Positions 6,079 through 60,625 are shown, numbered from the stretch's first letter. The stretch: DNA of 64,000 bases from Deltaproteobacteria bacterium (GCA_016218965.1 JACRCP010000248.1:10517-74516); one strand, 5' to 3'. The notes: a model not told the origin generated them from the letters alone. Translations and numbers: made by a program.

Positions 6079-7139
6079 CGCTTGAATACCGCCTTCTTGA
6101 GGGCGTCGAACTTTTTCCGGGCCGCGGCGATCTCGGCCTCCTGGCCCACGGGTTTCGATGCCAGATAGGCTTCGTAGATGTCCCGGGCGAGTTCGATCTC
6201 CCCGGACACGGCCATGACGTCGCCCAGCCAGTAACACGCGAGGGCGAGGCCCATGTTGCACGCGCTCACGAAGCCCGTGCCGGCCGCCTTGAGATCCCCG
6301 CGTCCAAACCGGATCTTTGCCAGGTTGAAACCCGCTTCCGGGTGGTCCTTGGAAATCGCAAGCGCCGCCATGAACTCCTTTTCGGCTTCCTCCGTCTTCC
6401 CGATGTTCAGGAGCGCGGTCCCGAGGTTCGAACGCAGGTCGGCGTTTCGCGGCATGAGGTCGCGGGCGGTGCGAAGGTGTGTTGCGGCATCCTCGAACCG
6501 CTTGAGCAAGAGCAGCATGGACCCCAGGTCGAAATGCGCCTCGGCGTTTTTGGGGTCCTCTTCGATCACGCGCATCCACGAGTTTGTCGCGTCGGACACC
6601 CGGCCGAGCTGCTGGTACACGAGTCCGAGAGTGACGCGGACGTCGTGATTGCGCGGATCGATCTCGAGAACTCTGGTGAGCGTTTCTCGCGACTCCTCGA
6701 ACCTGCCGAGCGCCGCTTGCACCCCGCCCAGGTTTGCCCGGGCCGCCAGATAGTCGGGATCCACGGCGATGGCCGATTTGAACCGCGCCTCGGCCTTCTT
6801 GAACTCGCGCCGCAGAAGATAGCACCAGCCGAGGTTGTTCAGGGCCTCGGCGAAGTCGGCATTGAGATCGACCGCTTTGGAAAAGTAGGAGACCGCGGCG
6901 TTCATGTCGCCTTTTTTGAGCGCCACGATCCCCAGGTTGTTGTACGGCTCGGCGAACTTGGGGTTGAATTCGAGAGCCATCTCGAAGCGGCTCCGGGCAA
7001 GGTCGAGGCTGTTGTCCTTCAGGTACCCGACGCCGGTCGCATTGTGTTGGATGGCGCGGGCGTGGATCTGGCTTGCCGCGCACCCGGACCCGAGCACCAG
7101 TACGGCGAGCGCGATGACGGGGAACGAACGGTTCATCAT
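6075..7139 (-). CDS. TPR-repeat lipoprotein
   Basis: Signal peptide with lipobox (LVLGSGC). Seven or more 34-aa TPR-like repeats (A..YNNLG...KGD...A...F.KA..L.P.). Confidence 0.8.
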   Translation of the reverse strand: MMNRSFPVIALAVLVLGSGCAASQIHARAIQHNATGVGYLKDNSLDLARSRFEMALEFNPKFAEPYNNLGIVALKKGDMNAAVSYFSKAVDLNADFAEALNNLGWCYLLRREFKKAEARFKSAIAVDPDYLAARANLGGVQAALGRFEESRETLTRVLEIDPRNHDVRVTLGLVYQQLGRVSDATNSWMRVIEEDPKNAEAHFDLGSMLLLLKRFEDAATHLRTARDLMPRNADLRSNLGTALLNIGKTEEAEKEFMAALAISKDHPEAGFNLAKIRFGRGDLKAAGTGFVSACNMGLALACYWLGDVMAVSGEIELARDIYEAYLASKPVGQEAEIAAARKKFDALKKAVFKR

Positions 7140-7351: not shown

Positions 7352-8047
7352 TTGAGAACTCTTCTTCTTCCCGGACTTGACGGTACAGGGCGGCTGTTTG
7401 ACCCGCTTCTGGGCGTGCTACCGGACCGCGGCGCGGCCGTGGTGGTTTCATACCCTTTCGATGCCATTGACTACCCGGCGTGCATCGCCCGGGCCGAGGC
7501 GGCGCTTGGACCGGAGCCGGCGTTCGTGATCGCCGAATCGTTTTCGGGGCCGGTCGGCGTCGAACTTGCGCTGCGGTATCCCGACCGGGTCGTGGGTCTG
7601 GTCCTCGTCGCCTCGTTTCTCACAAACCCGATGCCACTGCTTGCGCTTCTGTTGCCTTGGAGATTGGCACTGTCATTCCGCGGCTCCCCGAGGTTCGCGG
7701 GTCGTCTTCTCGGCGAAGGCGCTTCTGCCGAACTCGTTTCGGAATTCTCTTCCACACTCGCGAGCGTACCTGCCAACACACTGACAGGTCGAATTGGCGC
7801 GATCTCCCGGCTTAAATCCCAGCCTGCGGAATCTCGCGGGTGTTCCGTTCTGTATCTTCGCGCATCGAAGGACCGGCTGGTTCCTGCGCGATGCGAACAC
7901 GAGGTCCGGACGGTCTTCCCGAAGGCAAAGACTGCGGTCTTGGACGGGACGCATTTCCTTCTTCAGACACGGCCGGCAGAGTGCGCCGGCGTGGTCGATG
8001 AATTCAGGCGAAGACAAGTTCGGGAACGCCGGGCGTCCGAACGGTGA
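7352..8047 (+). CDS. Alpha/beta-fold hydrolase
   Basis: GxSxG-type nucleophile elbow (ESFSG) and overall alpha/beta-hydrolase pattern. Confidence 0.65.
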   Translation: MRTLLLPGLDGTGRLFDPLLGVLPDRGAAVVVSYPFDAIDYPACIARAEAALGPEPAFVIAESFSGPVGVELALRYPDRVVGLVLVASFLTNPMPLLALLLPWRLALSFRGSPRFAGRLLGEGASAELVSEFSSTLASVPANTLTGRIGAISRLKSQPAESRGCSVLYLRASKDRLVPARCEHEVRTVFPKAKTAVLDGTHFLLQTRPAECAGVVDEFRRRQVRERRASER

Positions 8048-8049
8048 CT

Positions 8050-9843
8050 TCACGCCGAGACGGCGTCTTTCCCATTTTTGGCGGCGGCGCGTTCGCCCCG
8101 GAGCACTTTGGGGAGTCTGAAGATCGTGAACGCGACCATCGAGAGCGTTAGCACGGCAAGCACTATCGCCGCCGCGGTGAGAAGCGTGTTCCCGACCGAG
8201 TAGTATTTTTTCACAAGAAGCCAAAGCGACGCGCAGGTGGTGACAAGTATGAAGACCGCAGGGACGAGCGTGTAGATCGCCCGTTTGCCGTGCATGATGA
8301 GCCACGCCGAGACGACAAACAACGTGAGGGCGGCCAATAGTTGGTTGCTCGTCCCGAACAGCGGCCACAGGGCGTGGAAAGAGTTGGTGAAGGCGAGGAC
8401 CGCCATCAGGACCACCGAGAGCCCCGAGTTGAACCACGCGTGGCGCATGACGCCGGGCACGCGCTCGTCACTGCCGAAGGCGATTCGCCAGAGCTCCTCG
8501 AAAAGATACCGGTTGAGGCGCACCGCTGCGTCGAGCGTGGTGATTACGAAGCCCTCGACCAGCAAGATCCCGAAGACCGTGGCCAGCGCCTGCGGGATGT
8601 GGATTGTGCGGTCGAGCAGATGCCCGACGGCCAGTGAGAAAGCGAGAATCGGGTTCGACGGCAAGAGCTTCGCCTGCTCGGCTGTGGGCCACACCAGAGC
8701 CAGGTAGTCGTCAAAGGCGAGGCTCGACCCGAGGGCAAGCACGACGAGCAGGGCGAGCACCCCCTCGAGGAGCATCCCGTCGTAGCCGATCCGTTTGGCG
8801 TGCGCCTCGGTCGCAATCTGTTTTGCTGTCGTCCCGCCGGCGACCAGCGCATGGAAGCCCGAGATGGCCCCGCAGGCGACCGTGATGAAGAGCAGGGGCC
8901 AGATCATCCCGAGGCGTGCCGTTCCTTGCGCGATGTTCTCAGCGGGGATCTGCATCTTGGCGCCCTGCAGGCCGCCGATGATGACGCCGGCCGCAAGCAG
9001 GAAGAGTCCCGCGTAGAGGATCTGGACGTTGATGAAGTCGCGAGGCTGAAGGATGAACCAGACCGGAAGCACCGCCGCGAACATGACGTAGACCGAAAGG
9101 ACAACCATCCAGACCTTGGGGTCGAGGCTGATGGGGGCGTAGATGCCCGCCACGACCGAGCCGATGCAGATTGCCGCCGCGAGCATGTATGCCGCGACGG
9201 TGTTCATCTTCCGGCGGTAGATGAGATAGCCCAAAAGAGGGGAGAGCAGGGTGATGATGACGACCGAAGTCGAGGCGATGCCGCCAATCACGCCCAGGAC
9301 CCGGCCGTCGGCCGCCGTCACGACTTTCAGGAACGACTGCCCGGCCGAAAGCCCGAGCTTTTCGACCGGCCACATCGAGGTGAGCGACACCGCGGTCGCG
9401 GCGAGGAAGTTCGAGGTTACGAGCACCAGCATCACGATGGTGAACAGGATGAACATCACGAAACTCGTGCGCCCCAGCGTCGTGCGCGACACGTCGGCCA
9501 TCGAGCGGCCGCCCTCGCGGACGGACACGAAGATCGCCGTGAAGTCGTGAACGGCGCCAAAGAACACACACCCCAGCACGATCCAAAGCCAGACAGGGGT
9601 GTAGCCGTAAAGGATTGCGATGGTCGGCCCCAAAATGGGGCCCGCCCCCGCGATGGCCGAGAAGTGGTGCGCAAAGAGGACGTGGATCCGCGTGGGGACA
9701 AAGTCGCGGCCGTCGTTTTTGACGACAGCCGGGGTAGGCTGGGCCGGGTCGACGCCGAAGTTCCTGCCTATGACCCGTGCGTAGAACCGGCTCGCCAGCG
9801 CGAAAACCGCCACGCCCGCGACGAAGAGCACCAGGATGTTCAT
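8050..9843 (-). CDS. cstA: Carbon starvation protein A (peptide/pyruvate transporter family)
   Basis: 597-aa polytopic membrane protein with a CstA N-terminal signature (HHFSAIAGAGPILGP, GYTPVWLWIVLG). Confidence 0.85.
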   Translation of the reverse strand: MNILVLFVAGVAVFALASRFYARVIGRNFGVDPAQPTPAVVKNDGRDFVPTRIHVLFAHHFSAIAGAGPILGPTIAILYGYTPVWLWIVLGCVFFGAVHDFTAIFVSVREGGRSMADVSRTTLGRTSFVMFILFTIVMLVLVTSNFLAATAVSLTSMWPVEKLGLSAGQSFLKVVTAADGRVLGVIGGIASTSVVIITLLSPLLGYLIYRRKMNTVAAYMLAAAICIGSVVAGIYAPISLDPKVWMVVLSVYVMFAAVLPVWFILQPRDFINVQILYAGLFLLAAGVIIGGLQGAKMQIPAENIAQGTARLGMIWPLLFITVACGAISGFHALVAGGTTAKQIATEAHAKRIGYDGMLLEGVLALLVVLALGSSLAFDDYLALVWPTAEQAKLLPSNPILAFSLAVGHLLDRTIHIPQALATVFGILLVEGFVITTLDAAVRLNRYLFEELWRIAFGSDERVPGVMRHAWFNSGLSVVLMAVLAFTNSFHALWPLFGTSNQLLAALTLFVVSAWLIMHGKRAIYTLVPAVFILVTTCASLWLLVKKYYSVGNTLLTAAAIVLAVLTLSMVAFTIFRLPKVLRGERAAAKNGKDAVSA

Positions 9844-19193: not shown

Positions 19194-20253
<1,060 letters not shown>

Positions 20254-20255
<2 letters not shown>

Positions 20256-20306
20256 AACAGGATTTGGGATTTAGAAATTAGAAATTTGGATTTGGAATTT
20301 TAGGAT
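20254..20306. repeat. AT-rich 'AAAACAGG-ATTTGGGATTTAG-AAATTAGAAATTTGGATTTGGAATTTTAGGAT' element between mreB and mreC (copy 1 of 2; see 60581-60625)
   Basis: Stands out in a ~68% GC background. A 13-mer ATTTGGGATTTAG and the flanking AAAACAG are shared with the inverted copy at 60581-60625. Confidence 0.6.
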
Positions 20307-20337
20307 CTGGGACATGCGAAACTGACGGCGGGCTTTC

Positions 20338-24985: not shown

Positions 24986-27900
24986 TCAATATTGTCCCGT
25001 GAGCCGCACGAAGAACCCCGAGGCGTCGTGGTTGAGGCTCTCGTAGAGGTTGTCCGAGAAGCTCGAGAAGTTGTAGCCCACTCCAAAACGGATGTTCTTG
25101 GCGGGGATGATCGCAACCTCGGCAAGATACCCGTCCTTCTTTTCGAGATCGAGAAGGACGAGCACGCGGTACTCGGCGCCGAGGTCGATTCTCTCCTTCC
25201 AGAGGTGGAAGTTGAGCCGGTTGATCCAAAGGACCATGTTCACTGCCGTCCACGGCTGGGCGTACGACTGCGAAACGGCGTGCTTGAGCGCGAGCTTTTC
25301 GACGATCTGGAGCCTGAATGGCGTTTCGACGATCGGGATGAGCGAAAAGATGTCCGAGTAGATCTCCTGGGCGGCATCATCAGCCGTGACGTCGAAGTTC
25401 CGGAACTCGTACAGGCGCGAGTACTTGAAGATGAGGTTTATCCAGTCGAAGTTCACGGGCCTAAGCGCAAACCCGAAGCTCGCCTCCATGAAAGCGGCCT
25501 CGCGGCGTTCGTAGCGCTGGTTCTGCGTGTCCGAAACGGAAAGCTTTGCCAAAAACGACAGATCGCGCGTGAACCGCCACGTCGATCCCAGGGTCGCGAG
25601 GTACTGGAACCGGTCCTGGCCGTTCCAATGCTCGTCGGCGTTGTCGAACCGGAGCTCGAGCCTGGTGCCGATCTTGAAGAACTCGTAGCGCAAAAACTCG
25701 AGCCCCACCGCAAAGACATCGCGGGCCGCGTCGCCTTCCATCATCCCCAGTGGGTAGTTCAGGCCGTAGTACGGGACCAGGGCGCCCGCCGAAAGCGCCG
25801 ACTCGTCGCTCTTGAGACCCGCCTGCCGGCCCTGAAGCGGCGACCTCGAATCGCCGGCAAACGCCGCCTGGTTTGGCCGCCCGTATGCCGTGTACGGCGA
25901 CGAGCTCAAGGGAATCGCCCCAAGCGCCGTGTCGGTGCTCGAGATGTACGCCGCGCCGCCCAGCACCTGCGTGTGCTCGAAGTCGAGGTTGAAATACGTC
26001 CCCTTGGCGATGGGCCAGCGGTTGTTTAGGCCGAATACCGACCGGTTCATGGCGTTGCTCGAGACCGAATCGACCTGGTACTCACCGTAGGTTCTCGTCC
26101 CCGGGATGCCCTGGTCCTCGGCGCCCAGCACGCTCGACGTGACGAACTGCCCGTTCCACGACCCCAGTTTCTCGTTGACGTATGCGCTTCCCGTCCCCGA
26201 ATCCGAGAGCGGGACCTTGAGGCCAAGCTGTGTCGCGTTGTCACCGGACCAACGGGCCGTCTCGGACGCCCCCACGACCAGCCCTTCGCGAATCGTGTAC
26301 CTCGCGCCGACCGTCGAGAACATCCTGTCTGCAAACGAATCGTAGAGCTTCGGGTCGCCGCCCATCACGCCCTGCTGCGCGCCGAAAAGCTCCCACCGGC
26401 GGCTGAGCGCATAAGACAGCCCCGCCCCCGCGATGTCGGTGTGGACCTCCTCGGGGGCGACTATGTTGTCCCGGAAATAGATGTAGTTGTCCTCGGCGAG
26501 GACCTTCCACGGTCCCAACTTCTTCTGCCACGACCCGTAGGCCGAGTACTTGTCAAAACTCATCTCGCGCGCGCCGGCGGATTCCGTGAGCGGTTGGGGC
26601 GGGATGCTAACGCTTAAGGCATCGCCCTTGAAACGCAGCTCCATGTCGCCCGGGAGCGTCTTTGACGAGTCGAAACCGTATTTGAGCATCCCCTGTTGAA
26701 GGACGCTCGTCCCCGCCGAGAATCCCGGGTCCATGTCCTGGGCGTACGCCTTGAGCGCGAGCCGCCGCCCGTCCTTCCCGAGGGCCTCGCCCACGTCGCC
26801 CTGCGCCTCGAACATCCAGGCGCTTCCGCCGATCCCGTTCTGCGGGAGGATCCCCCCGCCCGAGGAGATGAAACTCAATCCCCCGTCGTCCGAAAAATAC
26901 ACCGTCGAATCGAAGGACCTCGACTGCGCAAACTCGGCCTTTAGGGCGGCGGTCTTCCCCACGCTCAAGACGGCGTCGGCGCCCCAGATGGAGTACGCCT
27001 CGCGTCCCTTGGCCTCTTCTTTCACATACCCTCCGCCCAGCCGTAGCATCTTGAAGACCGTTTCTTCGACGCGGGCGCCGTACGCCCTGTTGCCCCCGGC
27101 GAGGATCGCGCTGTAGTCGTAGTCGACCTCGAGAAAGACCGGGTGTCCCGCAAGCTGCCGCCCGGGACCCAGAAGCGGCGAGAACGAGTCGGCCGTGGCG
27201 GAGACAGGCTGTTTGAGGATGATCCGGCCCTCGCCGTAGCCCATCGAATAGTCGATGTCGCGGGCAAGCGTCCGGCGGAGGACATCGAGCCCCGAGTCCT
27301 TGTCGCGGACAACGAGGTCCACGCGGTCGCTCCCCTCGATGACGGCGCCGTTTCGCAGATACAGCACCGACCCGCCGGTGGGCCGAAGCACCAGGCGGTC
27401 GTGCGCTATCTCGTCGTAGTCCTGCGACACGAACCCCTTGACGCGGTTTCCCAGGTTCCCGTCGAACGCGGCCCGGTTGAGATCCGCGTCCACGCCGTAG
27501 AACGCGCGGTTGTACCTCAGGAGCTCGACGCCCCGAAGGTCCGAGACGAAGTTGCCGACCAGAAGCCTTGAGTCGTCCGCCTTGACGAGAAGATACAGTT
27601 TGTCTCTGGCGTTGACGTCCTGCACCTCCGACGCGGAGTCGCCGTAGACGGGGTAGTAGCGCTCGGGGTTGTACGCCTCCTTGAAGTACTCGTGCGCGAG
27701 CTCGCGTTGCTTGGCCGTGTCGAAATGGAGCGTGTATTCGATGTTCTCGAACGTCGCCCGCCTGTGCGCCATCCCCTTCACGTAGAGGACGCCTCGACCA
27801 TGAAAGAGCATCCCCGGCCAGTTCACGCCGTTCCAAACCCGAAGTGACGAGGCGGTCGAGACTCCGTCGAGGTCAAGCCCTCCCATACCGGCGATCCCCT

Positions 27901-30900
27901 CGCCGAGCGCCAGCACAAAGACACGCTCCGGGTCGTACTCGATGGTGTACGAGACGCGGCTCCGGTGTCCCGCCGGGTCCTCGGCGGTGACCTCCACGAG
28001 GTTTTTGCCGGGGGCAAGTTTGACGGTCGCGTAAAATGAGCCGTCCTCGCGCACCGGGACTGCCTGGGAGCCCACGATCACCGTGTTCCCGGGCGTCGTG
28101 CCGCCGCGGAAGGTCAAAAACTCATGGCGCGCGACGTAACCGGGCGGCGGGAGTTCGACCCACGTGGCAAGCGAGCGGTCCTCGGAAGGCTGCGGGCTGT
28201 AGGCTGGAGGCTGGAGTCCGGCATCAGGAGTGGGGAGTCCGGCATTGAAGGATGAATCGGGCAACGCGCCGCCGTCGCGAGTCGTGAGTCGTTGGTCGTG
28301 AGTCGGCGTGCCGGCGTCGTCGGTCGTGAGTCGAGAGCCGTACTCCGCCCAGTCGGTCTCGTGCGGCGCGGCGCCCGCGTCGGGGCCGGGTTCCGTCCGG
28401 CCGGGCACCTTTTCGGACGTCCGGTCAACGCGCGCCGCGGCGAACTTTTTCAGCCGGCAGTCGACGCCGAAATTGACCTTGGCCGGGAGTCCCGGCGTGA
28501 AGTTCAGACCCTTGACCACTTCGCCGGTCGGAAGCGACCCGGGCGGCAGCGTGGCCACGTCCAGCTTGACCAGATGATAGCCGGCCGGGATTCCCTTGAA
28601 GTGGTACTTGCCGGTTTCGTCCACGTCCGAGTACCAGCCCGTGTCCATGAACACGCGCGCCCCGCCCAGACCGTCTTCGCCGGGGTCCTGCGCGCCGTTT
28701 CCGTTGGAGTCGCAGAAGACCTTCCCGATGAGCAGCCCCTGGTCGAATATCGGGTCCTCGACCACTCGGACGGGCGCCGAGGCGTCAACGTCCACCGCGC
28801 GCCCTTCGATGTAGAGCCGCGCCCGGTTGTTGAGCACCCCGGTTTTCGCCTCGAGCCCGACCACGGCCTCGTAGCGCAGGCGGACGGTCTCGGAAGCGCC
28901 AATGGAAATCGCACCGAAAGAGATCTCGGCCGCCCCCGCCGCATCGACCGTCGTATCGGCCTTCTCTTTCCCGTTCACGGCGCGGTAGAGCCTGGCGCTG
29001 TTCTGGATGAATCTTAGGCCCGAAGGAAGGTAGTCGTGGATGCTCACTCCGCCCGTTCGGGCCGCGCCGCTTGGCCTGAAGGCCTTTGACGACAGGTTCT
29101 GCACTGTCACGGTGTACGTGAGGATGTCGCCCCGCGCGGCCTCCGGCTTGCTCACGTTTTTCTCAATCCTGAAGGCGCTCTCCGCCCGGTCGAGCGGGAT
29201 CCGGTTGTTTTTCAGCACAAACTCGTCCTTCCCCGAATCGACCCGCAGGTAGTACGGTGCGCCGCGGGAGCGCTCGGAGAAGTCGGTGCTGACGTAGCCG
29301 TCGGCCGCCGCCTTGGCGTAGCCTGCGATGGGAGGGTACGTGCCGGATGGGAATATCATCGACGGCGACGGCCCGGACACCTCGATCCGGTAGGCGCCCC
29401 CCGCCGGGAGCTCCGCCGCGTACATTCCGGTCCAGTCGGTCTTCTGCACGCGGAGTTCCTTGGGGACCTTCTGCGACGGAAGTGAGAGCCCCGATGCCCC
29501 GTCGGGGTAGTACACGACGGTGGCGTTCTCAATGGGCTCGCCGCTCCGGGCGTCATAGATGACGCCGGCGGGAACGATCGCCATGTCCGAGCGGTGGACG
29601 TCGCCCTCCTTGAGATCAATCCCTGCAATCCCGGCGAACGGGACGCCGTTTTGCGAATACACCGTGAGGCGGTAACGCCCGGGGGCGAGGTTGGCGACTT
29701 CGAACGACCCGGCGGCGTCGACGAGCACGCGCGCCGTACGTTTGCCGGGCGACGCGGGACCCGCGGGCCTGGGCGCGGCGCTGCGGCTTGACCCGGTTTC
29801 CTGGTCGACCGCCACCGTGTAACCCCGAAGCGGAATGTCTTTTCCCTCGCTGAATTGCGTCTCTTTCGTGTCGCGTTTTTGGAACACGCGGCCCTTGACC
29901 ATCGCGGTCCCCTCGGTCCCGCCGACGATGAGCGAGACCGTGTTGGTCGTCTGTTTGAACTTGGGCGAGTAGACCACGGCGGCGTTTTTGACCTGGTCGC
30001 CCCGGACTGCGTCCTTGTCCGCCGTGACGAGGAAACTCAGTTTGACGGCATCGGCGGGCGACGCCGCCCGGGGGATCGTGAGTTTCGTGACGACCAGCTT
30101 CCCGCGCGTGTACCGGCCCGACGGCGCGGGCAGGAAACTCAACACTGCGTCCTGTGGAACGGTGTAGTTCTTGGGGTCGTTTTTAAACGTCGTGTGGGCA
30201 GGGATGTCGTCTTCGAGGGTGACCGCCTCGAGGTCGCCCGACCCCTGGTTCAAGAGCGTCAGCGTGTAGAGGACCTGGTCGCCCGGCATCAGGCTCCCGC
30301 CGTTCAGATCGGCTGCGTCCTTGGCGGCGCTCAAGAATATCTGTTCTCCGCCGCAGGTGGGGACCACCGTTTCCTGCGCGCCGTTTCCTGCGTCGCCGTC
30401 CGCGTCGCTCAATACCGACACCCCGCCCCCGTATGTCAGCGTTGCCTGGTTTGCAAACCCGCCGCATTCCCCGACTGTGACGTCGAACGCGAAGCGGACC
30501 CTGCCGCCCGGCCCAAGGTCCGAAAGCAACAGCCGGACGCTTCCGCGCACGCCGTCCGCGGCGTCAAACCGGCCCTGGTCGCCGTCCGCCGCATCGGTGA
30601 GCGCGACCATCGCGCCGCCGTCGCGCTGGACCATCATGGACCCCGGCACGTACGAAACCCTGTCGGACAACGGGTCGCGGAGCGCGACGTCGCCGGCGGC
30701 GGCGGCGCCCGCGTTCTCGAACGAGAGGACGAACTCGACCACGTCGCCCTTGTCGGCGACACCGTTGGCGTTGGCGTCGGTTTTCAAAAACCACGTCTTG
30801 GCGAGCGCGGGAATGAACGGCACGTCCCCGACCGGCACGACGGTTTCGTTGGTCCAGACCGGCTGGCCCCCGTCCCGGTCGATCCGCGCCTTGTTCTTGA

Positions 30901-33900
30901 CGACCTGTGCGCCGGGGAGGACCGTGACCTCGAACGTCACCACGGCAAGCTCGTCGTCCGACCCCCTGCCGTCCCACGGCACTATCCTGCCCTCGTCGGC
31001 CCCGGGCATTGCGCCAAAAGACGCCGACGTCACCTTGAGGCCGGCCTCCAGAGGGAACTTCCCGCCCCGCGAATCGGCGATTGGTCTCCCGTTGAGCGTC
31101 GTCGATCCCGCCACGTACCGGGAGGTCTGCGGGTCGATCAGATCGGTCAGAGTCGTCCCGGTGGCATCCGTCCTTCCGACGTTTTTGACCGTGATCGAAT
31201 ACCGTATCCTGTCGCCGGACCTAAGCGGGCTCCTCGACGGCGCTGCGGCCTTGGCGGATGCCGACAGGTCCGGCGACGCGGCCGATCGGACGACGAGCGT
31301 TGTCGCGTCGGACTTGGCCGGCGTCCGCGGGTCGTCCGTCACGTCCTTCACGCCTTCCGACGACTCGACGGCTGCCTGGTTCGAGATCTTCGTCCCCGGG
31401 GCCGCGGAGGCCGCGACCGAACAGGCAAACGACAATGCCGTCTTCCCGCCCGAAGGGATGAGCTTGAGCGCCGGTGTCTGCGCCGGCCCCCAGGAAATCC
31501 TGGCGCCGTCGAACGCCCCGCCGCTTGCCGGGATGACCCCGGCAAGGTTCGTCGAATCGACGAGGTCCGTCACGGTGACGTCGTGCGCATCGATCGTCCC
31601 GGTGTTTTTCACCTCGATCTTGAATACGATCTGGTCGCCCGGCGATACCTCCTGGTCCGCGGGGATTGCGGCGCCGGTCGCGGTGTACGGCAGTTTGGTG
31701 CTCGACGAAAACACGGGCTTGTTGAGCACCGTGACGACCGTCGGCTGGTAGCCGTTCTTTGGGTCGCCGTCGGCATCCGAGTAGGCATCGACGAAGTTCG
31801 ACCCTTTTGCGACGGCCTGGTTCGCAATCTCGGTCCCGTCCGGTATTCCCGTCTTGAGCCGTGCATTGAACCTGTACGTGTACGTATTCGGAGGGGAAAG
31901 TCCGAGGGGCGGCAATGTCCACGAAAGGACGTGCCCCGCCGGGTCGTAGGTCCCTCCGTCAAGGGGCGTTGCCGCGTCGAGGAACCCCGCAATCGACGAG
32001 ATGTCATCGCGCAGCGTCCCGCCCTCGGCAATCGCGTCGCCGATGTTGGTGAGCGTGATTGTGTAGGATACCGTGCCGCCCGGCGGCGCCTGGGGGCGGT
32101 CGGCCTGTTTCGTCGCGTAGACAAAGGCGGTCGAGGCCACCTTGAACACCGTCGGGTCCGCAGCGGCCGGCGTCGCGGGGTCGTCGCTTGAAAACGGTGC
32201 GCCAAGGTTCGAGGCGGAGAGCACCGCCTGGTTAGAGACAACCGTCCCGTCCTTCAGGGGTTTTTTGACCTTTGCGCCAAACGTGTACGCGAACGCCCCC
32301 ACGCCGCCGTCGGCGCCCGCCGCAGGCAGGAAGCTCACCGTCCGCGTGGCAGGGTCGTAGGTCCCCGCCGAGACCTGCACGTCCTCGAGGTTCGAATCGA
32401 CCACGTCGGAGAGCTTCGCGCCGCAGAGCTTGACCTGGTCCTTTGGCGTGAACGCGACGGAGTATTCGACCCTGTCGCCGGGCCGGACCGGCGTCAACGC
32501 AAAAGACGCCCGTTTTTCAAAAGTGCCCCCCGCGCCCGCGCCGGAAACCGGCAGGACGATTTTCGGCGTGTTGAAGCCGTTCGGAACCTCCGCGGCCGAG
32601 ATGTGCGCCAGGTTCTCGACCTGGCCCGAGACGCACTGCCTCACAAGCGCCGCAAACGAGACCTTGGCCGCGTTCTGCGCGCCGACGCCGAGCGACGGGA
32701 TGGAGTAGCGCACCTTTTTGCCGTCGAACGTCCCGCCCGGGTATGTTTGGACCGTCAGCCTCGATGTGTCCACCGTGTCCTCGATGACCACCCCGGTCGC
32801 CTCGGCGTTGCCCGTGTTGACCGCCGTGATCTCGAATGTGACCGTATCGCCGGGTTTGAGCGACGCCGCGGGGGACCCTCCGACCGATGCGGTCTTCCTG
32901 CTCAGGATGAAATCCGGCGCCGACTCGACGGTCACTATCGTCGGGTCGGCCGGCGTAACGGTGTCGGGGTCGTCTGAGTTGGCGGGGTACTGGTTCTCGG
33001 CGCAGACGATGGACGCCTGGTTGCGAATCGTCGTGCCGTTCTTGATGGGCGTCCTGACGTCGGCCTCGAAACTCACGGTCCAAAACGCGCCAATCCCAAT
33101 CGACGGCACGGTCCACGTGATGACGCCGCCGGCGATCTGCCCCCCGTCCCGGACCGTGATGTTGACGAGGTTCTGCGTGTCCACGGCGTCGGTTATCGTG
33201 ACGTTTGTCGCCGCCACCGTCCCCGTGTTGGTGGCGGTCACCAGCCAGATCACCTTCGACCCGGCCTGGAACTTGTGCGTCCTGTTCGCAAACGACCCGT
33301 CCGGCGTGGCCACCTTGGTCGAGGCCGTGAACCCCGGCTGCTCTACTACCGCGAGGCGCACGGTGTTCGTCTTGAGGCTCGCCCCCCCGCCCGTGACGGT
33401 CGCGAAGTTCTCTACGAAAGACCCCGGTCTTGTCGGCGGCAGGACGCGGGCCGTGAACGTGAGGGCCACGGACCGCCCGAAATCCAGGCGCGGGACCGTC
33501 CAGTTGACGGCCCGGGTGATCGTATTGTAGGTCCCGGCCTGAACTGAAACGTCCGAGAGGCCGCGGTCCACGGTGTCGACGACCAGGAGGTCGTTTAGCC
33601 CGCCGGGGCTGGCGTTCACGACGGTCACCGTGAACGTGAGCAGATCGCCCGCCTTGACCACGCCGCCGGTGTCGCCCTGGACCGCCTTGGCGCTCCCGGA
33701 GAAATCGTAGGGGAACGTGACCGCAAGCGTGACCGGGTCGTCGGCCGCCGAAGTGGCCGGGTCGTCCGTCGGCACGCCCGTTATGACCTCTTTGGAATAG
33801 ACGAACGCCTGGTTGAAGATCTTCAGGCCGGAGTCAAGCGGCGTCTTTGCCCGCGCGGTAAACGCGACGGCCTTTTGCGCGGCCGGCGCCATGTCACCCA

Positions 33901-36427
33901 GGTTCCAGCGGATCGTCCGACCGGCCCTGTCGAACGTCCCGCCGTCTTCGGGAACCACGTTTTCGAACCTGGAGTCGACCTGGTCGAGCACGTACGCCGC
34001 CTCGGCCACCCTGTTGCCGGAATTGGCGACCGTCACGACGAATCGAACCGCCTCTCCCGGGGCGATGGTCCTGCGCCGGTCGTCCGCGCCGAAGATGGCG
34101 GCCTTTTTTGATGTCGAGAAATCGGGCGCGACGGTCACGAACAGTTCGGCGCTCACGGTCTTGGATACCGAGCTGTCGGCGGGTGTGGTTATCACCGCTG
34201 TGTTCTTGATTTCGGTAGTGCCGGAGGGGAGTTGATTGACGATTCTCACCCTGTACTTGATCTCGGCGACCGCCCCGTGGCCGGCCAGGTCGAAGCCGTC
34301 GACAGTGAGCACGCCGCTCGTGAAATCCCATCGCGCACCCGGGGGGAGCGGACCGACGTCGAAGGTGTACTCGACGTACGGCGAAAAACGGTCGGTGACG
34401 ACGACGGGGACCGTGCGGTTTCCGGTGTTTCTTAGCGTGATGGAGTACTCGAGCGTGTCCCCGGGCGCGGGCGGGTTTGACGTCTTGTCGACAACCGCCT
34501 TGCTCGATGCCGAGAAATCCGGGGCGTATGTGAGCGTCACGACGGTCGGGTCAGCGCCCCCGGGCTTCGCGGGGTCGTCGGTGAGCATAGGCGACGCGAG
34601 CGCGGGGCCGGTGAGTGTCCCCTGGTTGCTCACCTGATAGCCGTGGATTTGCGTCCTCGAGCGCCACTGGTCGGCCGTGTCGATCTTGACGAGGAAGGTG
34701 AACGTCACGCTGAAGCGTTTCGGGACCGATATCCCCTCGATTGACACCTTGGATGCCGTGGACCGATCGGTCGAGCCGCCGGGCGGGTTGACCTTTGTGA
34801 CGGTGGTGTGCGCGGGCGCGTTGTCTTCGAATTTGAGCTCGTTGACGTCGTAGTCCGACTCGTTCTTCAGCGTGATCTCGTACTGGAGCGTGTCGCCCGG
34901 CTCGACAAAACCGCCGTTTAAGTCGGCGACCGTCTTCGTGATTGATTTTACCTCCGGGGCGCGGACGGTGGTCTTGACGGTATTGGTGTTGACCGGCTGG
35001 GTTTCATCCGACGAGATCCGGGCGCCGTTGGTGATCTCGGTGCCGCTTCGCCTGCCGGTCTTGATTCGGACCTGGAACTTGACCTTTTTTGCCGCCGTCC
35101 CGACCGCCAGATCGCCGATGTTGAGCCCCGACCCCACCGAGAGCGGGCACTGCCCTCCCCTTCCGTCGGCGGCCGGCACGTCGTCTACCGTCGTGCTCCC
35201 CGGGATGTAGTCGGTCCCGGCCGGGATGGTGTCGAAGACCTTCACGTTGTGGGCCAGAAGCGACCCCTCGTTCTTGACCCAGATCGTGTACGTGAGCGTC
35301 TCGCCGCCCCCGGCCACGACCTTGTCCACGTCCTTGACCGTCCCCGACCCGTGAAAGTCCGGGGCGTAGGTGTCGAGTGCGAGGACCATGTAACCAAGGA
35401 ATATGCTTTCGCCGCCCCCGGTGAGTGACAGCGGATCGCCGACATTGCCGTCACCGGAGCCGACTTGAATCGACGCGTTCGTCTGGCCGGACTGAAGGAT
35501 GTTCAACCCGCCGACTCCGACATTGAACGTGTCGATGTCCACTCCGACGCCGTCCACGGATTCGCCCTCGATCGTGCTGTTGAAAACGTTGTTCGGAGGA
35601 TTGGCGGTGTCGGTGAGTTTCACGCTGTTCAACGAGAGGAAATCATTGCACGTCTCGCAGTAGAGGGGATGATCTTTCGGAAGCTGTTTCTGGAAAGGTT
35701 CGCCCAACTGATCGTCCCCTTCGAGCCCGAAATACGCAAACTCCGCATAGGCGGGGTTTCCGACTGTGAATCCTCCTATGCTCATTGGCGACGAGATGCC
35801 GGTGCGGTCGTCTTCGTCCACGTGATAGAACCCGTCGTAGATCACAACGTCGCGGTACTTCCTCTGGCTCTCCGCACTCCAGACAACGACGAGCGACCAC
35901 CCGGCGTAACGGGCCTGGCACCAGACGTCCGTGTCGCACGAGGCCGAGATCCTCGCGTCAACGTTTCCCACCGTGTACAGACCCGACAACGTGGGAAGCC
36001 CCGTCAGCAGGTCAGTGACGCGTTTCCTGCAGTAGAAGAAGGAGCCTTTGTCCCCGGTGTCGACTTGGTAGCAGGTGTCCGCGACCAACGAGGCGTGTGT
36101 AGGCGAATTCGGCGGTGTGAAGTCGGCGGTCGGGCTCGAGTAGATGTTTTTCGACCCGGACCAGAACAGCCAGGCCTCAACGAGTTTGCCGTCGGCCGGG
36201 ATCGAGGTTATCGGGGCCGTTTTTTCCGGAAGCAGGACGCAGTTGAAACGCCCGGATTCGATCGGGCACCACTGGGTGAGAGTCGCCCCGGTCTTGGCCA
36301 CCGAGCCGAGGAGCCGGTTGACGGTATAGAGTGGGGCCGGCGGGTAGCCGTCGACCGTCGCGCGCGCCTCGGGGGAGGCGGCCAGCGCCAAGAGGAGGAA
36401 CAGGCATGAAACGAGGCGTCTTTTCAC
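24986..36427 (-). CDS. Giant secreted protein (~3810 aa): N-terminal unique domain, ~20 DUF11/CARDB-like 'conserved repeat' modules, SdrD-B/CnaB-like and Big domains, and a C-terminal ~900-aa region with beta-barrel character
   Basis: Signal peptide (LLLALAASPEARA). Repeated '...PDFS.SK......G..L.Y.I...N.G...A..V...D.L' modules. 'FCDSNGNGAQDPGE' is SdrD-B-like. The C-terminus has alternating hydrophobic strands and ends '...GFFVRLTGQY' (terminal aromatic). Confidence 0.8.
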   Translation of the reverse strand: MKRRLVSCLFLLLALAASPEARATVDGYPPAPLYTVNRLLGSVAKTGATLTQWCPIESGRFNCVLLPEKTAPITSIPADGKLVEAWLFWSGSKNIYSSPTADFTPPNSPTHASLVADTCYQVDTGDKGSFFYCRKRVTDLLTGLPTLSGLYTVGNVDARISASCDTDVWCQARYAGWSLVVVWSAESQRKYRDVVIYDGFYHVDEDDRTGISSPMSIGGFTVGNPAYAEFAYFGLEGDDQLGEPFQKQLPKDHPLYCETCNDFLSLNSVKLTDTANPPNNVFNSTIEGESVDGVGVDIDTFNVGVGGLNILQSGQTNASIQVGSGDGNVGDPLSLTGGGESIFLGYMVLALDTYAPDFHGSGTVKDVDKVVAGGGETLTYTIWVKNEGSLLAHNVKVFDTIPAGTDYIPGSTTVDDVPAADGRGGQCPLSVGSGLNIGDLAVGTAAKKVKFQVRIKTGRRSGTEITNGARISSDETQPVNTNTVKTTVRAPEVKSITKTVADLNGGFVEPGDTLQYEITLKNESDYDVNELKFEDNAPAHTTVTKVNPPGGSTDRSTASKVSIEGISVPKRFSVTFTFLVKIDTADQWRSRTQIHGYQVSNQGTLTGPALASPMLTDDPAKPGGADPTVVTLTYAPDFSASSKAVVDKTSNPPAPGDTLEYSITLRNTGNRTVPVVVTDRFSPYVEYTFDVGPLPPGARWDFTSGVLTVDGFDLAGHGAVAEIKYRVRIVNQLPSGTTEIKNTAVITTPADSSVSKTVSAELFVTVAPDFSTSKKAAIFGADDRRRTIAPGEAVRFVVTVANSGNRVAEAAYVLDQVDSRFENVVPEDGGTFDRAGRTIRWNLGDMAPAAQKAVAFTARAKTPLDSGLKIFNQAFVYSKEVITGVPTDDPATSAADDPVTLAVTFPYDFSGSAKAVQGDTGGVVKAGDLLTFTVTVVNASPGGLNDLLVVDTVDRGLSDVSVQAGTYNTITRAVNWTVPRLDFGRSVALTFTARVLPPTRPGSFVENFATVTGGGASLKTNTVRLAVVEQPGFTASTKVATPDGSFANRTHKFQAGSKVIWLVTATNTGTVAATNVTITDAVDTQNLVNITVRDGGQIAGGVITWTVPSIGIGAFWTVSFEADVRTPIKNGTTIRNQASIVCAENQYPANSDDPDTVTPADPTIVTVESAPDFILSRKTASVGGSPAASLKPGDTVTFEITAVNTGNAEATGVVIEDTVDTSRLTVQTYPGGTFDGKKVRYSIPSLGVGAQNAAKVSFAALVRQCVSGQVENLAHISAAEVPNGFNTPKIVLPVSGAGAGGTFEKRASFALTPVRPGDRVEYSVAFTPKDQVKLCGAKLSDVVDSNLEDVQVSAGTYDPATRTVSFLPAAGADGGVGAFAYTFGAKVKKPLKDGTVVSNQAVLSASNLGAPFSSDDPATPAAADPTVFKVASTAFVYATKQADRPQAPPGGTVSYTITLTNIGDAIAEGGTLRDDISSIAGFLDAATPLDGGTYDPAGHVLSWTLPPLGLSPPNTYTYRFNARLKTGIPDGTEIANQAVAKGSNFVDAYSDADGDPKNGYQPTVVTVLNKPVFSSSTKLPYTATGAAIPADQEVSPGDQIVFKIEVKNTGTIDAHDVTVTDLVDSTNLAGVIPASGGAFDGARISWGPAQTPALKLIPSGGKTALSFACSVAASAAPGTKISNQAAVESSEGVKDVTDDPRTPAKSDATTLVVRSAASPDLSASAKAAAPSRSPLRSGDRIRYSITVKNVGRTDATGTTLTDLIDPQTSRYVAGSTTLNGRPIADSRGGKFPLEAGLKVTSASFGAMPGADEGRIVPWDGRGSDDELAVVTFEVTVLPGAQVVKNKARIDRDGGQPVWTNETVVPVGDVPFIPALAKTWFLKTDANANGVADKGDVVEFVLSFENAGAAAAGDVALRDPLSDRVSYVPGSMMVQRDGGAMVALTDAADGDQGRFDAADGVRGSVRLLLSDLGPGGRVRFAFDVTVGECGGFANQATLTYGGGVSVLSDADGDAGNGAQETVVPTCGGEQIFLSAAKDAADLNGGSLMPGDQVLYTLTLLNQGSGDLEAVTLEDDIPAHTTFKNDPKNYTVPQDAVLSFLPAPSGRYTRGKLVVTKLTIPRAASPADAVKLSFLVTADKDAVRGDQVKNAAVVYSPKFKQTTNTVSLIVGGTEGTAMVKGRVFQKRDTKETQFSEGKDIPLRGYTVAVDQETGSSRSAAPRPAGPASPGKRTARVLVDAAGSFEVANLAPGRYRLTVYSQNGVPFAGIAGIDLKEGDVHRSDMAIVPAGVIYDARSGEPIENATVVYYPDGASGLSLPSQKVPKELRVQKTDWTGMYAAELPAGGAYRIEVSGPSPSMIFPSGTYPPIAGYAKAAADGYVSTDFSERSRGAPYYLRVDSGKDEFVLKNNRIPLDRAESAFRIEKNVSKPEAARGDILTYTVTVQNLSSKAFRPSGAARTGGVSIHDYLPSGLRFIQNSARLYRAVNGKEKADTTVDAAGAAEISFGAISIGASETVRLRYEAVVGLEAKTGVLNNRARLYIEGRAVDVDASAPVRVVEDPIFDQGLLIGKVFCDSNGNGAQDPGEDGLGGARVFMDTGWYSDVDETGKYHFKGIPAGYHLVKLDVATLPPGSLPTGEVVKGLNFTPGLPAKVNFGVDCRLKKFAAARVDRTSEKVPGRTEPGPDAGAAPHETDWAEYGSRLTTDDAGTPTHDQRLTTRDGGALPDSSFNAGLPTPDAGLQPPAYSPQPSEDRSLATWVELPPPGYVARHEFLTFRGGTTPGNTVIVGSQAVPVREDGSFYATVKLAPGKNLVEVTAEDPAGHRSRVSYTIEYDPERVFVLALGEGIAGMGGLDLDGVSTASSLRVWNGVNWPGMLFHGRGVLYVKGMAHRRATFENIEYTLHFDTAKQRELAHEYFKEAYNPERYYPVYGDSASEVQDVNARDKLYLLVKADDSRLLVGNFVSDLRGVELLRYNRAFYGVDADLNRAAFDGNLGNRVKGFVSQDYDEIAHDRLVLRPTGGSVLYLRNGAVIEGSDRVDLVVRDKDSGLDVLRRTLARDIDYSMGYGEGRIILKQPVSATADSFSPLLGPGRQLAGHPVFLEVDYDYSAILAGGNRAYGARVEETVFKMLRLGGGYVKEEAKGREAYSIWGADAVLSVGKTAALKAEFAQSRSFDSTVYFSDDGGLSFISSGGGILPQNGIGGSAWMFEAQGDVGEALGKDGRRLALKAYAQDMDPGFSAGTSVLQQGMLKYGFDSSKTLPGDMELRFKGDALSVSIPPQPLTESAGAREMSFDKYSAYGSWQKKLGPWKVLAEDNYIYFRDNIVAPEEVHTDIAGAGLSYALSRRWELFGAQQGVMGGDPKLYDSFADRMFSTVGARYTIREGLVVGASETARWSGDNATQLGLKVPLSDSGTGSAYVNEKLGSWNGQFVTSSVLGAEDQGIPGTRTYGEYQVDSVSSNAMNRSVFGLNNRWPIAKGTYFNLDFEHTQVLGGAAYISSTDTALGAIPLSSSPYTAYGRPNQAAFAGDSRSPLQGRQAGLKSDESALSAGALVPYYGLNYPLGMMEGDAARDVFAVGLEFLRYEFFKIGTRLELRFDNADEHWNGQDRFQYLATLGSTWRFTRDLSFLAKLSVSDTQNQRYERREAAFMEASFGFALRPVNFDWINLIFKYSRLYEFRNFDVTADDAAQEIYSDIFSLIPIVETPFRLQIVEKLALKHAVSQSYAQPWTAVNMVLWINRLNFHLWKERIDLGAEYRVLVLLDLEKKDGYLAEVAIIPAKNIRFGVGYNFSSFSDNLYESLNHDASGFFVRLTGQY
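28186..28345. repeat. ~160 nt in 7-nt register inside the giant ORF: (GGCTNNA)x4, spacer, then (GAGTCGT)x7 (revcomp TCACGAC); copy 1 of a composite element also present at 52941-53012
   Basis: Read directly: 'ggctgta ggctgga ggctgga gtccggc atcagga ... gagtcgt gagtcgt tggtcgt gagtcgg ... cggtcgt gagtcga'. On the minus strand it encodes a low-complexity linker (..THDQRLTTRDGGALPDSSFNAGLPTPDAGLQPP..). Confidence 0.55.
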
Positions 36428-36488
36428 CCGGCAACACGTCCCCGCATATTATTTCACAAAACCCCCAACCGTTGTATTATACACCATC

Positions 36489-47621: not shown

Positions 47622-48620
47622 ATGTTTGCGAGCGCGTATCAGCTGGGCGCCGAGTTCTCCGCGCGGGCGAGGCACTTCGGGCAGCCGCTGTTCGTGCTCG
47701 CGCACCAGGACGACGAGCTCAACTACGCGGGCCTGATCTCGCGGCTGGGACCCAAGACCCGCTTCGTCTGGGTCACCAACGGCGACGGCCTCTACCAGGA
47801 ATCGAACCTCGGTCCCGGAAAATACGGCGACCTCCGGATGGCAGAGGCCGTCCGTTCGGTCGCTGCGGCCCGAATCCCCGAACAGAACACTCGGTTCCTC
47901 AAGTTCTCGGAGGTCGAGATCTACCGGCACCTGGCGGAGATCTATGGCGAGGCTGGAGGCATCCACCTTCGCCATCCAACTTCGCCAAGGCTTCGTCGGG
48001 CAAGAGGCTACGGCGGACAAGGGAGGCTGGGGGCGGGAGGTATCGGAGAGCCGCATCGCGTGTTCTTCGACCGGATCCGCGTGGCTGTTCGCAATGCCCT
48101 CTTCGAGATCGATCCCGACGTCGTTTTCACTCTCGCCTGGCAGGGGGGCCAGCCCGAGCACGACCTCACGCACCTCTTCACGATGCTTGCCATCCACGAT
48201 TTCAGGCGCGAACGCGGCGGCAAGGTCGAGTTCTTCCACCTGCCGGAGTACGAGTACACGATACTGCTCGCGATGCGGTTCCACCCGTTTTACCGCGGTG
48301 TGAGATACCGGATACGCCTGACCGACGATGAGATGGCGGTCAAGCAGAAGATGATTGACGCGTACGCGTCGCAGGCTCGCCTGTTCGGTGAGTTCCGCAA
48401 GGTCTTCACATACATCGGCCGTGTCGGGCGGTTCGTCGGCGGGCCGAAGAGCGCCGAAGAATACCTGTCGACCGAGGAATTCGGTCCCGTCCCCGCGGAT
48501 CTCGACTACACGGCAAAACCGCACTCCCTGGACTACTTCACATACATGTTCGACCATTTCGAAGGCACGCCGGTCACGTTTTCCCGGTCCATCCGCCCGA
48601 TCGTGGGGACTTTCATATGA
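47622..48620 (+). CDS. PIG-L/LmbE-family N-acetylglucosaminyl deacetylase-like protein carrying an in-frame ~28-aa Gly/Arg-rich insertion
   Basis: 'FVLAHQDDE' matches the PIG-L (L/V)xxAHPDDE zinc motif. Residues encoded by 47958-48045 (GGIHLRHPTSPRLRRARGYGGQGRLGAGG) correspond to a DNA repeat that recurs downstream. Confidence 0.7.
   Translation: MFASAYQLGAEFSARARHFGQPLFVLAHQDDELNYAGLISRLGPKTRFVWVTNGDGLYQESNLGPGKYGDLRMAEAVRSVAAARIPEQNTRFLKFSEVEIYRHLAEIYGEAGGIHLRHPTSPRLRRARGYGGQGRLGAGGIGEPHRVFFDRIRVAVRNALFEIDPDVVFTLAWQGGQPEHDLTHLFTMLAIHDFRRERGGKVEFFHLPEYEYTILLAMRFHPFYRGVRYRIRLTDDEMAVKQKMIDAYASQARLFGEFRKVFTYIGRVGRFVGGPKSAEEYLSTEEFGPVPADLDYTAKPHSLDYFTYMFDHFEGTPVTFSRSIRPIVGTFI
47958..48045. repeat. 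Copy A of a ~90-nt repeat (AGGCATCCRCCTYCGCCATCCAACTTCGCCAMGGYTTCGYCGRGCAAGAGGCTACGGCGGACRAGKGAGGC...), in-frame inside the PIG-L CDS
   Basis: About 89% identical over ~71 nt to copy B at 48624-48728. Both end in a (GGAGGCN)-type heptamer tract. Confidence 0.7.
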
Positions 48621-48623
48621 CAG

Positions 48624-48728
48624 GCATCCGCCTCCGCCATCCAACTTCGCCACGGTTTCGCCGAGCAAGAGGCTACGGCGGACGAGTGAGGCGCGAGGCA
48701 TGAGGCAGCAGGCGAAAGGCGGGAGGCG
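48624..48728. repeat. Copy B of the ~90-nt repeat, intergenic; its 3' heptamer tract (gaggcgc gaggcat gaggcag caggcga aaggcgg gaggcgg) provides the ATG and first codons of the downstream Omp85-like gene
   Basis: Direct comparison with copy A. The tandem 7-nt register is visible. Confidence 0.7.
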
Positions 48729-50319: not shown

Positions 50320-50414
50320 AGAAGGCAGGAGGCAGGAGGCGGAAGGTCGGGTGAATCGCGGGCCGATTGGTGGTATGATATCGGCCGTACCGGGACTCCT
50401 ACGGAGGGCGAGCC

Positions 50415-52940: not shown

Positions 52941-53012
52941 CGCACGACTGACGACTCACGACTGACGACCTACGACTCTGAAGGACTGTCTCGCGCCTCC
53001 CGCCTCATGCCT
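52941..53012. repeat. Copy 2 of the composite heptamer element: (TSACGAC)x5 followed by (revcomp of GGAGGCN)x4, located between the convergent hydrolase paralogues
   Basis: 'gcacgac tgacgac tcacgac tgacgac ctacgac' ... 'ctcgcgcctcccgcctcatgcctcctgcc'. Its reverse complement has the same architecture as 28186-28345. Confidence 0.55.
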
Positions 53013-53025
53013 CCTGCCTTGTGAC

Positions 53026-55137: not shown

Positions 55138-55160
55138 CAGTCCTCCTGGATTGACCGCAC

Positions 55161-60575: not shown

Positions 60576-60580
60576 CCGCT

Positions 60581-60625
60581 CCGAAAATCCTAAATCTCAA
60601 ATCCTAAATCCCAAATGTCTGTTTT
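60581..60625. repeat. Inverted copy of the AT-rich ATTTGGGATTTAG element (copy 2), overlapping the annotated ATG of the downstream gene
   Basis: The reverse complement 'aaaacagacatttgggatttaggatttgagatttaggatttt' aligns with 20254-20306. Confidence 0.6.

Follow-up and report, generated by a model that had tools for sequence, protein, structure and literature searches.

Two inverted AT-rich sequences of a GC-rich "Deltaproteobacteria" MAG are probably GGATTTR simple-repeat arrays rather than copies of a discrete functional element

Introduction

An AT-rich sequence occurs twice, in opposite orientations, in a GC-rich stretch of a MAG labelled "Deltaproteobacteria bacterium" by NCBI, once between mreB and mreC and once between an SDR gene and an acyltransferase gene. 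The question that this locus raises is whether the two occurrences are copies of one functional element, and in particular whether the first of them regulates the mre operon from within. The original prediction had described an element of about 45 nt shared by the two sites and had offered three roles for it: a site for a transcription factor or nucleoid protein, a small structured RNA motif, or a short dispersed repeat. Here we analyse both copies, the other repeats of the same stretch, the corresponding gaps in relatives, and similar arrays in genomes, metagenomes and viruses. The whole stretch of DNA that was analysed (64,000 nucleotides, GCA_016218965.1 JACRCP010000248.1:10517-74516, 64% GC) is called the window throughout.

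Results

Position, rarity and likeness of the two copies

The two inverted AT-rich copies were found where they had been predicted, each in the interval from a stop codon to the following start (20259-20306 and 60585-60616). The features of the two sites are the following.

20259-20306, + strand: copy 1, a degenerate heptamer array of about 6.7 GGATTTR units, G-rich strand on +
20254-20260, + strand: AAAACAG head of copy 1 (from the sequence)
20256-20337, + strand: mreB-mreC intercistronic spacer, 82 nt, which houses copy 1 (ORFs, Pfam MreB/MreC)
60585-60616, - strand: copy 2, a heptamer array of about 4.6 units, G-rich strand on -
60576-60614, + strand: spacer between the SDR gene and the condensation-like acyltransferase gene, 39 nt, nearly all array
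60619-60625, - strand: AAAACAG head of copy 2, CTGTTTT on + (from the sequence and homologue N-termini)

A second, independent assembly made from this sample (Logan SRR12113407) has the same sequence in both spacers, which are therefore not assembly artefacts. The window contains only eight AT-rich islands, two of which are copies 1 and 2. Exactly two occurrences of the 13-mer ATTTGGGATTTAG, one on each strand, are present in the window, as compared to an expectation of about 0.002 exact matches in 128 kb.

The alignment of the two copies by MAFFT slipped register because of their periodicity and was replaced by a local pairwise alignment, in which 34 of 42 columns are identical, with three 1-nt gaps. 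The score of this alignment is 43, as compared to 45-58 when each copy is aligned with GGATTTR arrays of unrelated genomes (Chloroflexia, Pirellulaceae, Saccharibacteria, Verrucomicrobiales and others). This result indicates that a common unit, and not a common origin, accounts for the resemblance. Of the shared element of about 45 nt, the 13-mer and the 7-nt head are indeed common to both copies, whereas the remaining likeness is heptad periodicity and not a unique element. The head, AAAACAG, is a flank outside the periodic part; its presence at both copies is unexpected for independent arrays, the probability of its arising by chance being roughly 1e-3 to 1e-2.

Copy 1 in the mreB-mreC spacer

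The spacer that houses copy 1 (AAAACAGGATTTGGGATTTAGAAATTAGAAATTTGGATTTGGAATTTTAGGAT) extends from the TAA stop codon of mreB (20253-20255) to the ATG of mreC at 20338. The head of copy 1 starts within this stop codon, which provides its first two bases. According to Tandem Repeats Finder, the array has a period of 7, with 6.7 copies and 69% matches; its units are GGATTTG, GGATTTA, GAAATTA and similar ones. The 48 nt between 20259 and 20306 do not contain any C and form the sole C-free run of at least 25 nt within the window. TAG occurs in all three frames of the array. The RNA of copy 1 carries at least six GGA motifs, which lie just 5' of mreC in an unpaired context, none of them in hairpins; the RNA of copy 2 has no GGA motifs.

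Copy 2 and the start codon of the downstream gene

Copy 2, whose minus-strand sequence is AAAACAGACATTTGGGATTTAGGATTTGAGATTTAGGATTTTCGG, was found by Tandem Repeats Finder with a period of 7 (4.6 copies, 80% matches) and with a period of 14 (94% matches). Its units are GGATTTA, GGATTTG and AGATTTA, and the mRNA (+) strand reads AAATCCT AAATCTC AAATCCT AAATCCC AAAT, with TAA in two frames. The array is contained in a run of 33 nt without G (60584-60616), the longest of the window. The stop codon of the SDR gene (60573-60575) lies 5' of copy 2, and at the other end the array extends into the ATG at 60615-60617.

This ATG is not the start codon of the NCBI record (P0121, HY897_15940, 413 aa), in which the gene that we place at 60615-61904 (+) begins at ATG 60663. 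The N-termini of homologues (IPxRLPxVxADRML) are encoded 5' of ATG 60663, and for this reason the start should be ATG 60615 or TTG 60624; the public start-codon annotation is probably wrong. The predicted product has 429 residues from ATG 60615 and, from TTG 60624, 426, as many as the closest homologue; a gene call made independently on a Logan contig also starts at 60615. If ATG 60615 is the start, the head of copy 2 corresponds to codons 2-4, otherwise it overlaps the alternative TTG start at 60624. Since the 31 nt upstream of the 60615 start (60584-60614) are without G, a Shine-Dalgarno sequence cannot be present there. In fact, no purine run resembling one was seen in the SDR-acyltransferase spacer, and a Shine-Dalgarno sequence is absent both at ATG 60615 and at TTG 60624.

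An imperfect 11-nt inverted repeat brackets copy 2 (60566-60576, CCGAAAATGAC, and 60616-60627, GTCTGTTTTGG). Both of its arms lie partly within coding sequence, and it represents the sole predicted pairing in this spacer (-6.4 kcal/mol, z = -1.1). It is probably due to chance.

Other heptamer arrays in the window

Period-7 self-similar runs are nine in the 64-kb window, as compared to 0.6 in shuffled sequences; for periods 5, 8, 10 and 11 (non-coding) there are 0-1 runs each, which corresponds to the background. GGATTTR copies beyond copies 1 and 2 were not found in the 64 kb. Arrays made of other units are the following.

50323-50345, + strand: AGGCAGG array of about 3 units, starting 3 nt downstream of the stop codon of ORF 48355-50319
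52944-52977, + strand: ACGACTS array of about 5 units, starting 3 nt downstream of the stop codon of ORF 50415-52940
52990-53019, - strand: AGGCRNG-type array (read on -), its end lying 6 nt from the stop codon of ORF 53026-55173 on the minus strand
28188-28333, - strand: pair of arrays, one of ACGACTC type and one of CCAGCCT type (read on -), within the open frame 24986-36448 of 3821 codons

Copies 1 and 2 and three other arrays each lie 0-6 nt from a stop or start codon. Two arrays sit within the giant open frame and not in intergenic DNA; either a giant protein has a linker colonised by heptads, or the frame 24986-36448 actually represents two genes.

A composite of two arrays, in which an ACGACTS array is followed by a short gap and a CCTSCNG/CCAGCCT array, was found twice. 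At 52942-53020 it occupies a convergent intergenic gap; at 28188-28333 it lies on the minus strand, in a low-complexity stretch of the giant frame, and its translation is the low-complexity sequence LTTDDAGTPTHDQRLTTRDGG...LQPPAYSPQP.

Turnover of the arrays in relatives

Relatives were reached through MreC, the exact-protein look-up of MreB having given no match. In the sister lineage (L001 and L002, MreC 87% identical), the mreB-mreC spacer is 339 nt long and of different sequence. A two-unit remnant of the array, TTTGGGATTTGAGA, adjoins mreC, and nothing more of the array is left; as the alignment with L001 and L005 shows, the only part of the spacer kept in the sister lineage is the last 25 nt or so before the mreC ATG (CTGACGGCnGGCTTTC). 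In the next relative (L005, MreC 68% identical) the spacer is 34 nt long, GC-rich and without an array. The 339-nt spacer of L001 (9662-10000) also has a repeat of about 9-10 nt, TTTCGTGNN, present three times in addition to the remnant.

The gap between the SDR and acyltransferase genes measures 164 nt in the sister lineage (L147, 5837-6000). It holds three AATGTCC units right after the SDR stop codon, positionally aligned with copy 2, and about 70 nt further on an inverted array of seven TTGGACA units that abuts the ATG. A more distant relative, L149, has other neighbour genes and no array. Arrays thus persist at both orthologous gaps across the nearest split, while their length, unit and architecture turn over. 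This persistence could reflect selection for the presence of some array at these gaps, rather than mere descent.

Another intergenic gap of L001 (7448-7571) contains mixed tandem arrays (GAGAATCAGGCT twice, AGGCTGT three times and ACAGGTCT 4.8 times), which indicates that the occurrence of heptad and octad arrays characterises the lineage and is not confined to one MAG. No such arrays were found in 6-10 kb of L005 (70% GC) and L149 (74% GC).

GGATTTR arrays in other genomes, metagenomes and viruses

Species-representative genomes were scanned for the 14-mer ATTTGGGATTTAGRA. About 2000 chance matches are expected in the 596 Gb covered, so that the raw numbers of matches are meaningless and it is their context that is informative. 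Among the matches listed, at least 42 of 120 lie in arrays of at least three heptads, whose hosts, on the basis of record titles, are Verrucomicrobiota, Planctomycetota, Acidobacteriota, Kiritimatiellia, Chloroflexota, Cyanobacteria, Bacteroidota and Patescibacteria. The arrays often form inverted pairs and potential long hairpins (L085, L058, L062, L079 and L144). Inverted array pairs, seen in L144, L085 and L147, are not present at the sites of copies 1 and 2. In a census of position, 50 arrays were distributed as 11 + 12 at the 5' end of the G-rich strand and 6 + 7 at its 3' end; the direction is the one reported by Rehm et al., but the difference is not significant and the ORF heuristics used are crude. 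The frequencies of stop or CAT triplets near the array edges were about those expected by chance.

Viral sequences contain such arrays as well. In IMG/VR, 47 stretches have at least three perfect units, and one group of phages carries about 13-17 perfect GGATTTA units. Arrays of this length were seen in the viral contigs L153 (56-145) and L182 (645-757), and also in L168, L171, L174, L175, L176 and L196; arrays of the L153/L182 type begin with ...TAGACAGGATTTAGG and lie near the contig end in the shorter contigs. Among 97 arrays, a start with ACAGGA was seen four times (L114, L144, L153/L182 and L185), as compared to about 0.8 expected. When all metagenome contigs were scanned for the head together with the core, only 19 stretches were found, about 17 of which are unrelated AT-rich sequences that do not form arrays, several of them at a similar conserved position.

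A 21-mer of copy 1, AAAACAGGATTTGGGATTTAG, is also present in an unrelated metagenome contig of 60% GC (L144, JGI Ga0208565_1000025). This contig has four GGGATTT/AAATCCC arrays in 12 kb (6360-6590 and 7930-8125), one of which carries the 21-mer. They form inverted pairs with GC-rich centres, flanked by GCGGGATTTGGGA ... TCCCAAATCCCGC. In this arrangement the GGGATTT heptad appears to be used in a palindromic, REP-like way.

Fold, promoter, terminator and quadruplex

The stability of the predicted folds was compared to that of shuffled sequences for both strands of both spacers, and none was better than the shuffles (z = -0.84, -1.13, +0.29 and +1.04). Rfam gave no match in either spacer, even at E<=1. 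With one strand devoid of C and the other devoid of G, strong pairing is impossible. These results speak against a small structured RNA motif. Neither copy has a hairpin, and target duplications and terminal inverted repeats were not found at either.

Neither a sigma-70-like promoter (-35 and -10 hexamers with 16-18 nt spacing) nor an intrinsic terminator (GC-rich hairpin followed by a T-run) was found in or beside either array. The proposed internal regulation of mreCD-pbp2-rodA thus finds no promoter or terminator, and the spacer in which it would reside varies from 82 nt to 339 and 34 nt in the relatives. When further copies and conservation of the spacer were looked for, this proposal largely failed: the 64 kb hold no further copies, and the spacer is not conserved.

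A regular-expression search for canonical G-quadruplexes (four or more G3+ tracts, loops of 1-7 nt) gave none in either copy. The corresponding G2 search gave one weak two-tetrad motif in copy 1 and none in copy 2 with loops of up to 7 nt. The "ideal" GGGATTT arrays of L144 do contain a canonical G3 motif (6396-6437).

Discussion

The two copies are members of a known, poorly understood class, the intergenic heptameric repeats. Among the long simple repeats of prokaryotes, those with a unit of seven nucleotides were reported to be the commonest in the majority of genomes, and their proposed cause is slippage of the polymerase (Mrazek 2007, as summarised in PMC4679880 and PMC4692102). The 7-nt LSSR of Mrazek, Guo & Shah (2007), as outlined in those later papers, are head-to-tail, over-represented in their period, non-coding and sporadic across phyla, as are the arrays described here. 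In fact, we observed at least three head-to-tail units, an excess of period 7, locations near ORF ends and rapid turnover at conserved positions, and there is no essential difference between these LSSR, as so outlined, and copies 1 and 2. A literature search found no earlier description of the GGATTTR unit or of this host lineage. Of the three roles that had been offered, the short dispersed repeat comes closest, although what is present is actually two arrays of one heptanucleotide family.

The repeats reported by Rehm et al. (2015), GGGAATC in Xanthomonas and GGGGA(C/T)T in Nostoc PCC 7120, are intergenic and close to ORFs, are found between the same gene pairs in related species with extensive variation in length and sequence, and include one example within an operon, pecE-pecF; their function was not identified in that study (PMC4692102). 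Copies 1 and 2 match this description point for point, having very similar units with a G-run followed by A/T, complete strand asymmetry, a location near ORF ends and an example within an operon, except for the quadruplex potential, since they are degenerate and do not have four G3 tracts. The Rehm repeats also occur as inverted pairs, which among our arrays are found in L144, L085, L058 and L147. The hosts differ, being Nostoc and Xanthomonas there and a GC-rich "Deltaproteobacteria" MAG here.

As far as copy 2 is concerned, the same anatomy by the start codon is found in the TAACTGA heptads of marine Beggiatoaceae, cyanobacteria and Bacteroidetes, which have 2-6 units, carry stop codons and lie just 5' of starts that are without a ribosome-binding site; binding of S1, Csp or CsrA was suggested for them (MacGregor 2015; PMC4679880). 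No functional class of neighbour genes stands out for TAACTGA. These repeats are mostly found in one orientation upstream of starts, whereas copies 1 and 2 differ in sense from each other and copy 1 lies after a stop codon. Membership of this family was rejected, the units here being GGATTTR/YAAATCC. Units such as CCCCAGT, TTGGTCA and CAACAGT make up the STRR heptamers of cyanobacteria. The STRR of Calothrix PCC 7601, as they are cited in PMC4692102, are similar to our arrays in that several distinct heptamer units per genome occur in tandem in intergenic DNA. STRR arrays are cyanobacterial and usually longer than those found here, and membership was rejected, the host being a "Deltaproteobacteria bacterium" MAG and the units being different. 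In Geobacter metallireducens, GGGACCG x4 occurs at 49 sites and MTYCTGA x5 at 15 sites, between and within genes, annotated as putative global regulatory elements (PMC2700814). These deltaproteobacterial arrays of 4-5 units are comparable to those in the giant ORF of the window, but differ in their units, in their fixed number of 4-5 copies and in their aligned flanks; no function has been shown for them either. A REP/BIME or MITE-like element was also rejected, given that there is no palindromic body or terminal inverted repeats and that the head-plus-core pattern is rare in metagenomes, where most of its occurrences are not in arrays.

The anatomy and periodicity of the two copies, the absence of structure and of conservation, and the arrays that are found elsewhere make it probable, in our opinion, that the copies are two GGATTTR/YAAATCC simple-repeat arrays born by slippage, with an effect that depends on composition only, and that they are not copies of a discrete functional element. 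From these observations we infer both the slippage origin and any effect on expression. The arrays would grow, shrink and decay by slipped-strand mispairing in a 7-nt register at replication, and would be kept out of coding sequence by their unit length, 7 not being divisible by 3, and by the stop codons that the units carry. Both would belong to an intergenic heptamer population that is spread over the lineage and includes several different units. Any effect would come from composition and not from a specific site, in the form of a strand-asymmetric, AU-rich, unpaired stretch at gene boundaries in a genome of 64% GC. Given that the two copies are oriented oppositely with respect to transcription and differ in where they lie relative to start codons, their anatomy does not argue for a shared site-specific function.

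The C-rich array of copy 2 makes up the whole leader, abuts the start codon and would stand in for a ribosome-binding site; without a Shine-Dalgarno sequence, we infer that translation must start from a leader that is open and unstructured. The G-rich array of copy 1 follows the mreB stop codon, closes the three frames and would provide an unstructured gap rich in GGA/AGGA. This gap may uncouple the translation of mreC from that of mreB, or expose the RNA to endonucleases. RNase E has a preference for RN↓WUU, which the GG↓AUU units of copy 1 fit, and a putative intercistronic processing by this enzyme is possible as a side effect.

Among the alternatives, the one to which we assign the highest weight, though we consider it unlikely, is that the arrays act as RNA, as a putative platform for a multivalent RNA-binding protein that tunes the translation of the adjoining gene; the candidates would be CsrA on the GGA repeats of copy 1, and ribosomal protein S1 or a cold-shock protein on copy 2. 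The unpaired GGA motifs upstream of mreC, at least six in number, are consistent with it, as is the location of copy 2, which reaches the start codon and takes the place of the ribosome-binding site. The repeats of CsrB are heptamers too (CAGGAUG), a resemblance, and only that, which we count in the same direction. An equivalent proposal was made for the Beggiatoaceae TAACTGA heptads that overlap ribosome-binding sites (PMC4679880), and in a Nostoc preprint deletion constructs suggest that heptamer repeats affect the expression of recO and recF (bioRxiv 10.1101/2022.06.06.494920). However, transcription reads the two copies in opposite senses, so that no single RNA-binding specificity suits both, close relatives have lost the array or carry it in remodelled form, and all four gene-relative positions are used in the 50 arrays of the census (11, 12, 6 and 7). 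Opposite orientations would not matter if the AT-rich heptads were a putative DNA site for a nucleoid-associated protein or a transcription factor, because binding to the duplex is compatible with inverted copies. Both copies are AT-rich islands within a genome of 64% GC, three heptads make 21 bp, which we take as two helical turns, and in the Vibrio cholerae ctxAB promoter the TTTTGAT heptads, likewise AT-rich and in tandem, are a real protein-binding site, bound by H-NS and ToxT (bioRxiv 10.1101/2021.05.14.444153). There the array lies in the promoter upstream of -35 and its copy number tunes transcription, whereas no promoter-like sequence is detectable near either copy here. Copy 1 lies within an operon, neither site is conserved in relatives, and the GC-rich heptads of the same window (AGGCAGG and ACGACTS) indicate that AT-richness is not a common property, all of which makes a DNA site of this kind quite unlikely.

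The head shared by both copies might suggest a dispersed and possibly mobile element, in which AAAACAG and the array were copied between sites or inserted site-specifically. The identical 21-mer in the unrelated contig L144 and the recurrence of ACAGGA starts in L114, L144, the viral L153/L182 and L185 point in the same direction. On the other hand, the head overlaps the stop codon at copy 1 and either codons 2-4 or the start codon at copy 2; head and core together are rare in metagenomes (19 stretches, of which about 17 are not arrays); neither terminal inverted repeats nor target duplications nor a hairpin are present; and the full AAAACAG head is found in none of about 60 genome-scan arrays among the matches listed. 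We regard such an element as very improbable. An even lower probability, close to negligible, is given to a G-quadruplex-forming element like the GGGAATC and GGGGAYT repeats in vitro. Although related heptads form quadruplexes (Rehm et al., PMC4692102) and the ideal unit GGGATTT makes a G3N4 motif, as in L144 at 6396-6437, neither copy in the window has four G3 tracts, and copy 1 has only a two-tetrad G2 motif.

The AAAACAG flank, the recurrence of ACAGGA and the arrays that persist at orthologous gaps leave a small probability, between those given to the RNA platform and to the DNA site, for a selected, sequence-flexible boundary element. In that case GGATTTR-type arrays would be a cross-phylum class of gene-boundary elements, in which it is the presence of an array at the gap that is conserved, and not its sequence, with roles that depend on the strand. 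Where the C-rich strand is transcribed, the array would serve as a ribosome landing pad independent of a Shine-Dalgarno sequence; where the G-rich strand is transcribed, it would be a protein-binding or processing platform after stop codons; and the ACAGGA with which several arrays begin would be the sign of a defined origin or of a recognition point.

With the two copies seen as slippage-born simple repeats, the tempting reading of copy 1 as a regulatory site of the mre operon is removed, as unsupported. What the analysis adds is a small data point on the function of heptamer repeats, namely that GGATTTR arrays occur across many phyla and in viral contigs. The persistence of arrays at orthologous gaps in spite of changing units bears on whether heptamer repeats do anything, and the same question of function is touched by copy 2, an array that lies in the place of a ribosome-binding site.
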